Below, one piece after another: positions 35,909 through 42,844 of a stretch of 43,525 nucleotides of DNA; position 1 is the first letter of the stretch; every line of letters begins with the position of its first letter. The stretch is taken from the NCBI RefSeq assembly GCF_003334255.1, contig NZ_QOWU01000046.1; one strand, given 5' to 3'. A program made the translations under genes and the position numbers. The DNA is from Escherichia coli (lineage in GTDB: Bacteria > Pseudomonadota > Gammaproteobacteria > Enterobacterales > Enterobacteriaceae). Under the pieces are notes generated by a model that was not told the DNA's origin, ran no database searches, and saw nothing but the letters and a program-made list of their open reading frames with translations.

Positions 35909-37594
35909 ATGATAACCATTCCCATTACGCTTCGTATGTTGATAGCAAAGTATCTCTGTCTGTTGAAGCCCTTTTGGCTGCGTAAGAATAATAAAACTTC
36001 AGTGTTGTTAATCATTATTATCCTCGCCATGATCCTTGGCGTGGTTAAAATTCAGGTCTGGTTAAACGACTGGAATAATGATTTTTTCAATGCGCTAAGC
36101 CAGAAAGAAACCGATAAGCTTTGGCAGCTTGTCCTTTGGTTCCCTGCCCTGCTGGGGATCTTTGTATTAATATCCGTAAACAAAACATGGTTAATTAAAC
36201 TACTGACTATTCGCTGGCGCGAATGGTTAACAGATTACTACCTTAATCGGTGGTTTGCAGATAAAAACTACTACTTCACGCAGATCTACGGCGAGCATAA
36301 AAATACAGATAACCCTGACCAACGTATCGCTGAAGACATTCTCTTACTGATCAGCAAAACGCTCAGTCTTTCATTTGGCTTCATCCAGTCACTTAGCATG
36401 CTGATCACCTTTACCGTTATTCTTTGGGAAAGCGCGGGTACGCTCTCATTCACTGTTGGTGGAACAGAATGGAATATCCAGGGGTATATGGTCTATACCG
36501 TCGTGCTCATTGTGATCGGTGGAACTTTATTTACCCATAAGGTGGGTAAACGTATTCGTCCGCTTAATGTGGAAAAACAACGTAGCGAAGCGACATTTCG
36601 AACAAATCTTGTGCAGCATAATAAGCAGGCAGAACTGATTGCGCTAAGCAATGCTGAGTCTCTACAACGCCAGGAGTTGAGCGACAATTTTCATACCATT
36701 AAAGAGAACTGGCATCGTTTAATGAATCGTCAGCGGTGGCTTGATTACTGGCAGAATATTTATTCGCGCTCGCTTAGCGTTCTTCCCTACTTTCTGTTAT
36801 TGCCGCAGTTTATTAGCGGGCAGATCAATCTGGGCGGACTGATGAAATCGCGCCAGGCATTTATGCTGGTATCGAACAATTTAAGCTGGTTTATTTATAA
36901 ATATGACGAACTTGCTGAACTGGCTGCGGTTATCGATCGCTTGTATGAGTTCCATCAACTCACTGAACAGCGCCCTACGAATAAGCCTAAAAATTGCCAA
37001 CATGCGGTACAAGTGGCTGATGCGAGTATTCGTACGCCTGATAATAAGATCATATTAGAGAACCTGAACTTTCATGTTTCGCCAGGCAAATGGCTATTAC
37101 TGAAAGGCTACTCTGGTGCGGGAAAAACCACACTGCTTAAAACATTATCCCACTGCTGGCCGTGGTTTAAAGGTGATATTTCTTCTCCTGCTGACAGTTG
37201 GTATGTGTCACAAACACCGTTAATCAAAACCGGCTTACTGAAAGAGATTATTTGTAAAGCACTTCCCCTGCCCGTAGACGATAAATCGTTGAGCGAAGTA
37301 CTGCATCAGGTTGGTCTTGGGAAATTGGCTGCGCGTATTCATGACCACGATCGCTGGGGAGATATTCTTTCCAGCGGCGAAAAACAACGTATCGCCCTGG
37401 CACGATTAATTTTACGACGTCCGAAATGGATATTTCTTGACGAAACTACCTCTCATCTTGAGGAACAAGAGGCTATCCGCTTACTGCGTTTAGTGCGTGA
37501 AAAACTACCCACAAGCGGCGTCATTATGGTTACACATCAACCCGGTGTCTGGAACCTGGCCGATGATATTTGTGACATTAGCGCGGTTTTATAA
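35909..37594 (+). CDS. yddA: Fused permease-ATPase ABC transporter
   Basis: 561-aa ORF with an N-terminal transmembrane domain and a C-terminal nucleotide-binding domain (Walker A GYSGAGKTT; signature LSSGEKQR). Confidence 0.9.
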   Translation: MITIPITLRMLIAKYLCLLKPFWLRKNNKTSVLLIIIILAMILGVVKIQVWLNDWNNDFFNALSQKETDKLWQLVLWFPALLGIFVLISVNKTWLIKLLTIRWREWLTDYYLNRWFADKNYYFTQIYGEHKNTDNPDQRIAEDILLLISKTLSLSFGFIQSLSMLITFTVILWESAGTLSFTVGGTEWNIQGYMVYTVVLIVIGGTLFTHKVGKRIRPLNVEKQRSEATFRTNLVQHNKQAELIALSNAESLQRQELSDNFHTIKENWHRLMNRQRWLDYWQNIYSRSLSVLPYFLLLPQFISGQINLGGLMKSRQAFMLVSNNLSWFIYKYDELAELAAVIDRLYEFHQLTEQRPTNKPKNCQHAVQVADASIRTPDNKIILENLNFHVSPGKWLLLKGYSGAGKTTLLKTLSHCWPWFKGDISSPADSWYVSQTPLIKTGLLKEIICKALPLPVDDKSLSEVLHQVGLGKLAARIHDHDRWGDILSSGEKQRIALARLILRRPKWIFLDETTSHLEEQEAIRLLRLVREKLPTSGVIMVTHQPGVWNLADDICDISAVL

Positions 37595-37631
37595 AAACAA
37601 TAAAAGCCCTGCTGTACGGAGATATAAATAA

Positions 37632-40004: not shown

Positions 40005-40048
40005 TAGTTCGGATTTTACTTAACCGGGTAAATTCGCCCGGTTTTCGC

Positions 40049-42844
40049 ATGGAGATAATTATGAGAAACCTCTGTTTCTTACTGACGTTAGTGGCAACTC
40101 TGTTGCTCCCCGGGCGGCTGATTGCCGCCGCCTTACCGCAGGATGAAAAGTTAATTACCGGGCAACTGGACAATGGCTTGCGATATATGATTTATCCGCA
40201 TGCTCATCCAAAGGATCAGGTAAATTTATGGCTGCAAATTCATACCGGTTCATTGCAGGAAGAAGACAATGAGCGCGGCGTGGCTCATTTTGTAGAACAT
40301 ATGATGTTTAACGGCACAAAAACATGGCCGGGTAATAAAGTCATCGAAACATTTGAGTCAATGGGCCTGCGTTTTGGTCGCGATGTTAATGCCTATACCA
40401 GCTATGACGAAACGGTGTATCAGGTGAGTTTGCCGACTACGCAGAAACAAAATCTGCAACAAGTGATGGCAATCTTCAGTGAATGGAGTAATGCCGCAAC
40501 CTTTGAAAAACTCGAAGTAGACGCTGAACGTGGCGTAATTACTGAGGAATGGCGTGCCCATCAGGATGCGAAATGGCGCACCTCTCAGGCGCGCCGCCCT
40601 TTCCTGCTGGCAAATACCCGTAATTTAGACCGTGAACCTATCGGCCTGATGGATACTGTCGCCACGGTCACACCGGCACAATTGCGCCAATTTTATCAAC
40701 GCTGGTATCAACCAAATAATATGACCTTTATCGTGGTCGGCGATATCGACAGTAAAGAAGCGCTGGCGCTGATAAAGGATAATTTAAGTAAGCTTCCGGC
40801 TAACAAAGCAGCTGAAAATCGCGTCTGGCCGACAAAAGCCGAAAACCACCTGCGCTTTAATATCATTAATGATAAAGAAAACCGGGTGAACGGCATCGCA
40901 CTCTATTATCGCCTGCCAATGGTACAAGTGAACGATGAGCAAAGCTTTATCGAACAAGCTGAATGGAGCATGTTAGTTCAGCTGTTCAATCAACGTCTGC
41001 AGGAACGCATACAGTCGGGCGAGTTGAAGACTATTTCTGGCGGCACTGCGCGCAGCGTTAAAATTGCACCCGATTATCAGTCGCTGTTTTTCCGTGTAAA
41101 TGCACGAGACGATAATATGCAGGATGCTGCGAATGCATTAATGGCAGAGTTGGCAACCATTGATCAGCATGGTTTTTCTGCTGAAGAACTCGATGATGTC
41201 AAATCTACCCGCCTCACCTGGCTGAAAAATGCGGTTGATCAGCAAGCTGAACGTGATTTACGTATGCTGACCAGTCGCCTGGCATCCAGCTCATTAAATA
41301 ATACGCCGTTCTTGTCGCCGGAAGAGACATATCAACTTTCGAAACGTCTGTGGCAGCAAATTACCGTGCAAAGTCTGGCGGAAAAATGGCAGCAGTTAAG
41401 AAAGAACCAGGACGCATTTTGGGAGCAAATGGTAAACAATGAGGTTGCCGCCAAAAAAGCATTGTCTCCTGCGGCTATCCTGGCGCTGGAAAAGGAGTAC
41501 GCCAACAAAAAGCTGGCGGCTTACGTCTTCCCAGGCAGAAATTTATCGTTAACAGTAGACGCAGACCCACAGGCGGAAATTAGCAGCAAAGAAACGCTGG
41601 CGGAGAATCTGACATCATTAACACTTTCCAATGGTGCCAGGGTTATTCTGGCAAAATCCGCGGGTGAAGAGCAAAAGCTACAAATTATTGCCGTATCGAA
41701 TAAAGGCGATTTAAGTTTCCCTGCGCAGCAAAAATCACTTATCGCGCTGGCAAATAAAGCAGTTAGCGGAAGCGGCGTTGGCGAACTCTCCTCTTCCAGC
41801 CTGAAACGCTGGAGTGCGGAAAATTCGGTAACCATGAGCAGTAAAGTCAGTGGCATGAATACGTTGCTCTCCGTTAGCGCGCGGACTAATAACCCTGAAC
41901 CTGGTTTTCAGTTGATTAACCAGCGAATCACCCACAGCACGATTAACGATAATATTTGGGCATCGCTACAAAATGCTCAAATTCAGGCGTTGAAAACGCT
42001 CGACCAGCGTCCAGCGGAGAAATTCGCCCAGCAGATGTATGAGACGCGCTATGCTGATGACCGCACGAAATTACTGCAAGAAAATCAGATTGCACAGTTT
42101 ACTGCCGCAGATGCGCTGGCTGCCGATCGCCAATTGTTTTCATCTCCAGCGGATATCACGTTTGTCATTGTCGGTAATGTCGCAGAAGACAAACTCGTGG
42201 CGTTAATTACGCGTTACTTAGGATCAATCAAACACTCTGATTCGCCATTAGCCGCAGGTAAACCATTAACTCGCGCGACGGACAACGCATCGGTTACTGT
42301 AAAAGAACAAAATGAACCTGTGGCACAGGTTTCACAGTGGAAGCGTTATGATTCCCGGACACCTGTTAATCTGCCGACGCGTATGGCGCTCGATGCTTTT
42401 AACGTCGCACTGGCAAAAGATCTACGTGTTAATATTCGTGAACAGGCATCTGGAGCATACAGCGTTTCTTCTCGCCTCTCGGTTGATCCTCAGGCCAAAG
42501 ATATCAGTCATTTGCTGGCTTTTACTTGTCAACCAGAACGACATGATGAACTGTTAACGTTAGCGAATGAAGTGATGGTTAAGCGTCTGGCTAAAGGGAT
42601 CAGTGAGCAAGAACTGAATGAATACCAGCAAAACGTTCAGCGCAGCCTCGATATCCAACAGCGTAGCGTTCAACAATTAGCGAACACTATTGTAAATAGT
42701 CTTATTCAATATGACGATCCTGCAGCATGGACTGAGCAGGAGCAATTGTTGAAACAAATGACGGTAGAGAATGTTAACACTGCCGTTAAACAATATCTTT
42801 CTCATCCGGTAAATACTTATACCGGAGTATTATTGCCAAAATAA
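40049..42844 (+). CDS. pqqL: Periplasmic M16-family zinc metallopeptidase (tandem M16 modules)
   Basis: 931-aa ORF with a signal peptide and the inverted zinc-binding motif HFVEH (GVAHFVEHMMFNGT). Confidence 0.9.
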   Translation: MEIIMRNLCFLLTLVATLLLPGRLIAAALPQDEKLITGQLDNGLRYMIYPHAHPKDQVNLWLQIHTGSLQEEDNERGVAHFVEHMMFNGTKTWPGNKVIETFESMGLRFGRDVNAYTSYDETVYQVSLPTTQKQNLQQVMAIFSEWSNAATFEKLEVDAERGVITEEWRAHQDAKWRTSQARRPFLLANTRNLDREPIGLMDTVATVTPAQLRQFYQRWYQPNNMTFIVVGDIDSKEALALIKDNLSKLPANKAAENRVWPTKAENHLRFNIINDKENRVNGIALYYRLPMVQVNDEQSFIEQAEWSMLVQLFNQRLQERIQSGELKTISGGTARSVKIAPDYQSLFFRVNARDDNMQDAANALMAELATIDQHGFSAEELDDVKSTRLTWLKNAVDQQAERDLRMLTSRLASSSLNNTPFLSPEETYQLSKRLWQQITVQSLAEKWQQLRKNQDAFWEQMVNNEVAAKKALSPAAILALEKEYANKKLAAYVFPGRNLSLTVDADPQAEISSKETLAENLTSLTLSNGARVILAKSAGEEQKLQIIAVSNKGDLSFPAQQKSLIALANKAVSGSGVGELSSSSLKRWSAENSVTMSSKVSGMNTLLSVSARTNNPEPGFQLINQRITHSTINDNIWASLQNAQIQALKTLDQRPAEKFAQQMYETRYADDRTKLLQENQIAQFTAADALAADRQLFSSPADITFVIVGNVAEDKLVALITRYLGSIKHSDSPLAAGKPLTRATDNASVTVKEQNEPVAQVSQWKRYDSRTPVNLPTRMALDAFNVALAKDLRVNIREQASGAYSVSSRLSVDPQAKDISHLLAFTCQPERHDELLTLANEVMVKRLAKGISEQELNEYQQNVQRSLDIQQRSVQQLANTIVNSLIQYDDPAAWTEQEQLLKQMTVENVNTAVKQYLSHPVNTYTGVLLPK

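Follow-up and report, generated by a model that had tools for sequence, protein, structure and literature searches.

Layout and iron control of the yddA-yddB-pqqL operon

The subject of this analysis is yddA-yddB-pqqL, a cluster of three genes in a 43.5-kb stretch of Escherichia coli DNA that is referred to throughout as the window. The cluster codes for an ATP-binding cassette (ABC) transporter, a TonB-dependent outer-membrane transporter and a periplasmic M16 zinc protease. The window is part of the E. coli chromosome, with positions 35000-43525 being 100% identical to many complete genomes and the 8.5-kb stretch that contains the cluster being 100% identical at the DNA level to annotated E. 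coli yddA-yddB-pqqL. Colinearity extends over the whole window in the order ptrR ... lsr ... hipBA ... ydeP-safA-ydeO-ydeN-ydeM-yneP-yddA-yddB-pqqL-gadB, which places ydeM and yneP upstream of the cluster and gadB downstream. We estimate a probability of about 0.7 that this region constitutes a Fur-repressed operon encoding a protease-associated import system of the Fus type, which is the type known from ferredoxin uptake by Pectobacterium.

A scan for open reading frames (ORFs) identifies three genes on the plus strand at 35909-37594 (561 amino acids), 37632-40004 (790 amino acids) and 40049-42844 (931 amino acids), which RefSeq names yddA, yddB and pqqL, respectively. An earlier first-pass annotation of this DNA described these genes as tightly spaced, co-directional and probably forming one operon. 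The intergenic gaps of 37 nt (yddA-yddB) and 44 nt (yddB-pqqL) returned by the ORF scan are exactly those it gave, and co-transcription has been established in strain CFT073, where reverse transcription PCR (RT-PCR) gave products that span each of the two junctions (PMC3855560). RefSeq, however, places the start of pqqL at 40061 instead of the 40049 of the long ORF. There is a GGAG sequence 8 nt upstream of the ATG at 40061, while the ATG at 40049 is not preceded by a Shine-Dalgarno sequence. Since only the former has a ribosome-binding site, 40061 is more probably the true start, in which case the yddB-pqqL gap is 56 nt and not 44. The choice between these start codons leaves mature PqqL unchanged. 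The yddB ATG also has a GGAG sequence, in this case 9 nt upstream. The GC content is 43.6-46.7% across yddA, yddB and pqqL and roughly 34-44% in the flanking intergenic stretches and neighboring genes.

A consensus scan of the ydeM-yddA intergenic region identifies a sole sigma-70-like promoter match, located on the plus strand at 35867-35896 and composed of TTGCCA, an 18-nt spacer and TG-CACAAT (9/12 matches plus an extended -10 TG). The spacer contains the Fur half-site GATAATCATT (35875-35884), and the promoter match stops 12 nt short of the yddA ATG. Judged from its position, this promoter would give rise to a nearly leaderless yddA mRNA whose start region would lie under a Fur box. The presence of Fur boxes upstream of yddA had been listed as a point to check, and we scored the whole window against the 19-bp consensus GATAATGATAATCATTATC. 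A 15/19 match is present on the plus strand at 35905-35923, where it covers the yddA start codon. This is the joint best score in the window, and it was reached by 7 of 2,000 shuffled versions of the intergenic sequence. Additionally, the Fur box published for CFT073, GGGAATGGTTATCATTAG (PMC3855560), corresponds to positions 35906-35923 read as the reverse complement. A second Fur-like sequence with a 14/19 consensus match occurs on the minus strand approximately 100 nt inside yddA (36007-36025). The other 15/19 match in the window is located inside hipA (24144-24162) and is probably a chance occurrence.

Iron control of the operon has been documented by others. Loss of Fur derepresses yddA-yddB-pqqL, growth in urine induces its expression more than 30-fold (PMC3855560), the upstream region is bound by Fur and the RNA level is raised by RyhB (PMC4676285), and bipyridyl raises the amount of PqqL protein (PMC6793856). 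Fur-like boxes also precede orthologous clusters, with scores of 16/19 in each of two related loci (L003 and L004, described below) and 15/19 in Dickeya. Thus, iron control of this type of cluster appears to be conserved.

The three proteins and their Fus counterparts

The second gene of the operon, yddB (37632-40004, plus strand), encodes a TonB-dependent outer-membrane transporter of the FusA family. Residues 29-790 of YddB match PDB entry 6OFR over its whole length with 1,750 bits, and the match to FusA (PDB 4ZGV) has an E value of 5.4e-79. A search for plug and barrel domains, as suggested in the first-pass annotation, is half negative when Pfam and NCBIfam are considered alone; Pfam returns only Plug, and weakly so (1.3e-6), no barrel model from either database matches, and NCBIfam has no family for this protein. 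Assignment of the barrel consequently rests on the solved structure (PMC6793856), and with 6OFR taken into account YddB has both domains. Structure 6OFR is described as a 22-strand barrel plus plug whose pocket measures about 28 x 29 Angstrom. Its closest structure is FusA, and its loops resemble those of this protein importer rather than those of FhuE or Fiu (PMC6793856). YddB has an AxA-type signal peptide, MKRVLIPGVILCGADVAQA, and a candidate TonB box, EEMTVYAP, at residues 31-38 directly before the plug. A TonB box was a feature on which the import interpretation had been made to depend beforehand, and at the sequence level the candidate aligns with the FusA box DTILVRST in Dickeya as well as with ETMVVKA in locus L004 and DIIVVKA in L003. 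In FusA, proline substitutions in DTILVRST abolish ferredoxin import.

The product of pqqL (40061-42844, plus strand, or from 40049 if the long ORF is used) is a periplasmic four-domain M16 zinc protease that belongs to the FusC/PqqL subfamily. Pfam identifies Peptidase_M16 (1.8e-40) together with two Peptidase_M16_C domains. There is a full-length match to PDB 6OFS/6OFT, as well as matches at about 1e-58 to the FusC structures 6B03, 6B05 and 6BRS (1.6e-58 for 6B03). A signal peptide is present, and the HxxEH zinc site occurs as HFVEH at residues 80-84. Experimentally, PqqL is periplasmic and an active protease that cuts short peptides with an F/Y-F/Y-V/A motif (PMC6793856).

The first gene, yddA (35909-37594, plus strand), encodes a half-size ABC transporter in which an SbmA/BacA-type membrane domain is fused to an ATPase domain. 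Pfam matches are ABC_membrane_2 (PF06472, 1.8e-43), SbmA_BacA (PF05992, 2.3e-33) and ABC_tran (PF00005, 2.8e-18), while the classical ABC_membrane profile reaches an E value of only 2.7. All of the ATPase motifs are intact (Walker A GYSGAGKT, signature LSSGE, Walker B IFLDE and H-loop VTH). The best solved relative is PDB 6TQE, with an E value of 2.1e-67 over residues 34-552, followed by ABCD transporters. We take 6TQE/6TQF to be Rv1819c of Mycobacterium tuberculosis. In the literature, Rv1819c is described as transporting cobalamin and as being the nearest homologue of SbmA and BacA, which import peptides (PMC8442886, PMC3603451). YddA shares with Rv1819c the SbmA_BacA/ABC_membrane_2 membrane domain and a C-terminal ATPase domain. 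There are also differences, as the Rv1819c chain is approximately 86 residues longer, with approximately 70 of its N-terminal residues unmatched by YddA, and Rv1819c has not been reported in a receptor/protease cluster. SbmA and BacA differ from YddA in that they are proton-driven and lack an ATPase domain.

These features bear on the direction of transport. The first-pass annotation called YddA a fused ABC exporter, a wording that does not hold up in its second half, since the membrane domain is of the SbmA/BacA type and the term exporter therefore refers to a fold and not to a demonstrated direction. From the SbmA/BacA domain, the relationship to Rv1819c, the conserved association with an import receptor and the uptake-type changes seen in a metabolomics screen upon yddA overexpression or deletion (PMC10971958), we infer that YddA is probably an importer, although a report of multidrug efflux (PMC9728188) runs counter to this.

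Structures of YddB (6OFR) and PqqL (6OFS) have been solved, and publications from 2016 to 2019 relate the two proteins distantly to FusA and FusC, which serve ferredoxin uptake in Pectobacterium (PMC5095587, PMC6793856). The resemblance to ferredoxin-uptake systems that was pointed out in the first-pass annotation is therefore sound and is identical to the published view. The same annotation considered the ABC transporter to be an unusual third partner, which is not the case. The fus operon is defined as comprising fusB (TonB-like), fusA, fusC and fusD, the last being a ‘fused ABC transporter’ of which yddA was named a homologue (PMC5095587). Furthermore, a YddA homologue of Dickeya dadantii (P0099) is located in a cluster that encodes a TonB_C protein, a TonB-dependent transporter, an M16 protease and an ABC transporter, and it is 37% identical to YddA over 554 aligned residues (E=1.7e-128).

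The trio also recurs elsewhere. Five loci were reached by way of YddB homologues (L003, L004, L005, L006 and L007), and SbmA/BacA-type ABC and M16 genes are found beside the receptor gene in four of them (L003, L004, L005 and L007). Altogether, genes for an ABC transporter, a TonB-dependent transporter and an M16 protease occur together in L003 (Orbaceae), L004, L005 (Muribacter muris), L007, L009 (Pseudomonas) and L011 (Gilliamella), although their order and genomic context vary. For example, the ABC gene of L005 is on the opposite strand, and L007 contains the trio plus genes for TonB, an extracytoplasmic function (ECF) sigma factor and FecR. Some clusters (L007, L009) go beyond that of E. 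coli by carrying ECF sigma/FecR together with an STN signalling domain, or by carrying a TonB gene. In the remaining locus (L006, Oryzisolibacter, 9001-12652) the gene that comes after that of a YddB homologue (30% identical) encodes a cytochrome c peroxidase (CCP_MauG), with no M16 or ABC gene, and this pairing of a FusA-like receptor with a cytochrome c peroxidase has been described previously (PMC6793856).

Identities to YddA, YddB and PqqL covary across loci, being 53, 60 and 46% in L004, 51, 45 and 40% in L003 and 37, 29 and 24% in Dickeya. The ABC transporter is the best conserved of the three except in the closest locus. L003 and L004 additionally share the E. coli gene order and have the upstream Fur-like boxes noted above. 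A YddA homologue with 34% identity stands alone in an alphaproteobacterial locus (L012, Ferrovibrio), and the wider SbmA/BacA-ABC family is therefore not confined to such clusters.

When compared to FusBACD of Pectobacterium and Dickeya, the E. coli cluster shares a FusA-family receptor with a wide extracellular pocket and a TonB box (in a position equivalent to that of Dickeya), an adjacent periplasmic four-domain M16 protease, a fused SbmA/BacA-type ABC transporter of the FusD type, and Fur regulation, with a Fur-like box upstream of the Dickeya fus-type cluster as well. The gene order differs, as it is ABC-receptor-protease in E. coli and TonB-receptor-protease-ABC in Dickeya. The E. coli cluster is also without a FusB-type TonB homologue, and the annotation of the whole window includes no TonB_C gene. 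Further differences are that plant ferredoxin is not cut by PqqL and that the host niche of E. coli is animal and not plant. FusB is likewise absent from L003, L004, L005 and L011 and is thus not universal in the wider family.

Proposed import route and competing explanations

The features described above are consistent with the following series of events. Upon iron limitation, Fur is released from the boxes in the promoter and over the start codon and a single transcript is synthesized, a step that the literature has shown. The solved YddB barrel, with its unusually wide extracellular pocket, would then bind a small globular protein that probably contains iron. General TonB-ExbBD would engage EEMTVYAP and power passage of this cargo into the periplasm; the general TonB is proposed because there is no FusB-type gene nearby. 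In the periplasm, PqqL, a clam-shell M16 zinc protease whose location and protease activity have been demonstrated, may enclose and cleave the cargo. In the Fus system, FusC is not needed for ferredoxin to reach the periplasm. Finally, YddA, as a FusD homologue, may use ATP to bring the released cofactor or peptide fragments into the cytoplasm.

We consider it possible, but doubtful as a whole, that YddA works inwardly within a complete outer-membrane-to-cytoplasm route that salvages a metalloprotein from the host or gut community by means of general TonB only, and that this route may also be exploited by a bacteriocin or phage. If true, use of this entry route by a bacteriocin or phage would help explain why the same deletion occurs in a sizeable minority of E. 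coli genomes, among them that of the Crohn's-associated strain LF82.

There are a number of observations that weigh against assignment of this cluster as an iron-regulated Fus-type import system. Dipyridyl alone did not induce the transcript in CFT073 (PMC3855560), and deletions of yddB and pqqL caused no growth defect in iron-limited lysogeny broth (LB), even in a strain lacking other TonB-dependent transporters for iron. We also sought a ribosome-binding site or longer leader for yddA and recognized none. Import in Pectobacterium requires the dedicated TonB homologue FusB, which itself binds cargo, and the E. coli cluster is without such a gene. YddA has been reported to be an ATP-dependent multidrug exporter (PMC9728188). 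Human ferredoxins, plant ferredoxin and globins were all uncut by PqqL (PMC6793856), and the statement in the first-pass annotation that the cargo is not established remains correct. Finally, a 241-bp probe that spans a deletion junction matches 726 of 5,426 complete E. coli genomes, including LF82, at a coverage of at least 80%. Most of the operon is lost in these genomes, which indicates that it is dispensable.

One alternative, which we regard as unlikely, is that YddB imports a small molecule (a peptide, or a siderophore or other metal chelate) instead of a folded protein, with PqqL degrading peptides or trimming something unrelated. Small ligands are indeed carried by most TonB-dependent transporters, PqqL cuts short peptides and none of the proteins tried, and the cargo-binding FusB is missing from E. 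coli. In addition, peptides are taken up by SbmA/BacA-type transporters (PMC8442886, PMC3603451). The dimensions of the YddB pocket, together with loops that are like those of FusA and not those of FhuE or Fiu (PMC6793856), argue in the opposite direction. A siderophore would also hardly explain why the association with a large clam-shell protease that is able to enclose a small protein has been conserved, and yddB does not improve growth in iron-limited LB, a medium in which E. coli produces siderophores itself.

It is also rather improbable that YddA acts in multidrug efflux and has only its operon in common with YddB and PqqL, with the three proteins not forming one pathway. This explanation derives from the reported finding that yddA knock-outs are more sensitive to a number of compounds, among them norfloxacin, tetracyclines and ethidium, and that efflux is vanadate-sensitive (PMC9728188), and it is in keeping with the type IV ‘exporter’ fold that YddA shares with half-size ABC transporters, ABCD and ABCB being among its PDB matches. 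However, the membrane domain of YddA is of the SbmA/BacA type, with only a negligible score for the classical profile, and its gene is under Fur control and not under drug control. Moreover, yddA has been kept beside a FusA-type receptor and an M16 protease across the Gammaproteobacteria with covarying identities. Resistance was also unchanged in earlier overexpression studies, as these are summarized in PMC10971958.

A third proposal, that PqqL is a PqqF-type protease of pyrroloquinoline quinone (PQQ) biosynthesis and that the cluster serves to make this cofactor, stems from the historical gene name, a weak NCBIfam PqqF match and reported complementation of Methylobacterium pqqE/pqqF mutants by E. 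coli pqqL (cited in PMC3855560), but it is effectively refuted by a TIGR02110 score of 48.5 bits against a cut-off of 320, by the inability of E. coli to synthesize PQQ (PMC3855560), by the lack of other pqq genes in the window and by the periplasmic location and Fur regulation of PqqL (PMC6793856), and we rejected it.

The Fus-type import operon that we favor is of interest for several reasons. It is a validated fitness factor of uropathogenic E. coli in systemic infection, with yddB and pqqL mutants losing fitness in a mouse model (PMC3855560), and YddB is among the last TonB-dependent transporters of E. coli K-12 without a known ligand. The identity of the cargo would reveal if whole-protein piracy, which has been proven only for plant ferredoxin, extends to an animal commensal and pathogen. 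The correct parts of the first-pass annotation, including the cargo being unknown, are already in print (2013, 2016 and 2019). What can usefully be corrected is its view of the ABC transporter, which is a core and conserved part of the system and probably an importer.

Operon loss, flanking hairpins and neighboring sequences

In approximately 15% of complete E. coli genomes, all that is retained of pqqL is its 3' end. The deletion in strain CCUG 73778 corresponds to window positions 35627-41927 (6,301 bp), and its junction (L002:5994-6002) shows an overlap of 2 nt. The promoter, yddA, yddB and the initial 1.9 kb of pqqL are gone, and the 918 bp of pqqL that remain are fused just after ydeM. 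The junction-probe matches listed are for the most part human isolates, and LF82 and an isolate from blood are among the matches. The probe match in LF82 and in one further genome listed consists of two pieces approximately 590 bp apart, which indicates that the junction differs in these strains. Separately, insertion sequence (IS) elements of the IS1, IS3 and IS5 (ISKpn26) families break yddB or yddA in NZ_CP148405.1, NZ_CP030152.1 and NZ_CP096834.1, and these independent insertions are a further sign of dispensability.

The cluster was described in the first-pass annotation as being bounded by terminators. Hairpins do occur at both of the places it indicated, but only the downstream one is followed by a T tract. 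The downstream hairpin (42851-42875, plus strand) has a 10-bp stem and a 5-nt loop, begins 6 nt past the pqqL stop codon and is followed by an ATTTTAG tail that extends the feature to 42882. It has an RNAfold free energy of -18.6 kcal/mol and is a reasonable and probable intrinsic terminator for the operon. The upstream hairpin (35669-35700, plus strand, -17.5 to -18.2 kcal/mol), which is located downstream of ydeM, has a weak tail that merely contains TTT. It falls within yneP, an annotated 40-codon ORF on the minus strand (35584-35706) that shares 35 nt with the 3' end of ydeM. A consensus terminator scan that demands 5 T in 8 bases called neither of the flanking hairpins because their T runs are too short for this rule, with the downstream one being a narrow miss. 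The scanner called 11 sites in the region, which is not above the number obtained with shuffled sequences (8.9 +/- 3.0), and none of these are in either internal gap of the cluster. Hairpins of -15 kcal/mol or lower occur at 32 plus-strand places across the window and in many cases within genes. Consequently, it is the position of the flanking pair after stop codons and not their strength that argues for a role in termination.

RNAfold analysis of positions 40005-40060 places a GC-rich hairpin with a 7-bp stem (ACCGGGT/GCCCGGT) and a subsequent TTT between yddB and pqqL (40023-40042, plus strand). This element may be an attenuator or may affect mRNA processing or stability. The CFT073 transcripts detected by RT-PCR run across the junction that contains it (PMC3855560). 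An Rfam search of positions 30000-43525 returned no RNA family. Beyond the operon, the sequence TTAGGATTTTGTTATTTAAA is present at 43107-43126 upstream of gadB, and we presume that it matches the 20-bp GAD box that is bound by GadE.

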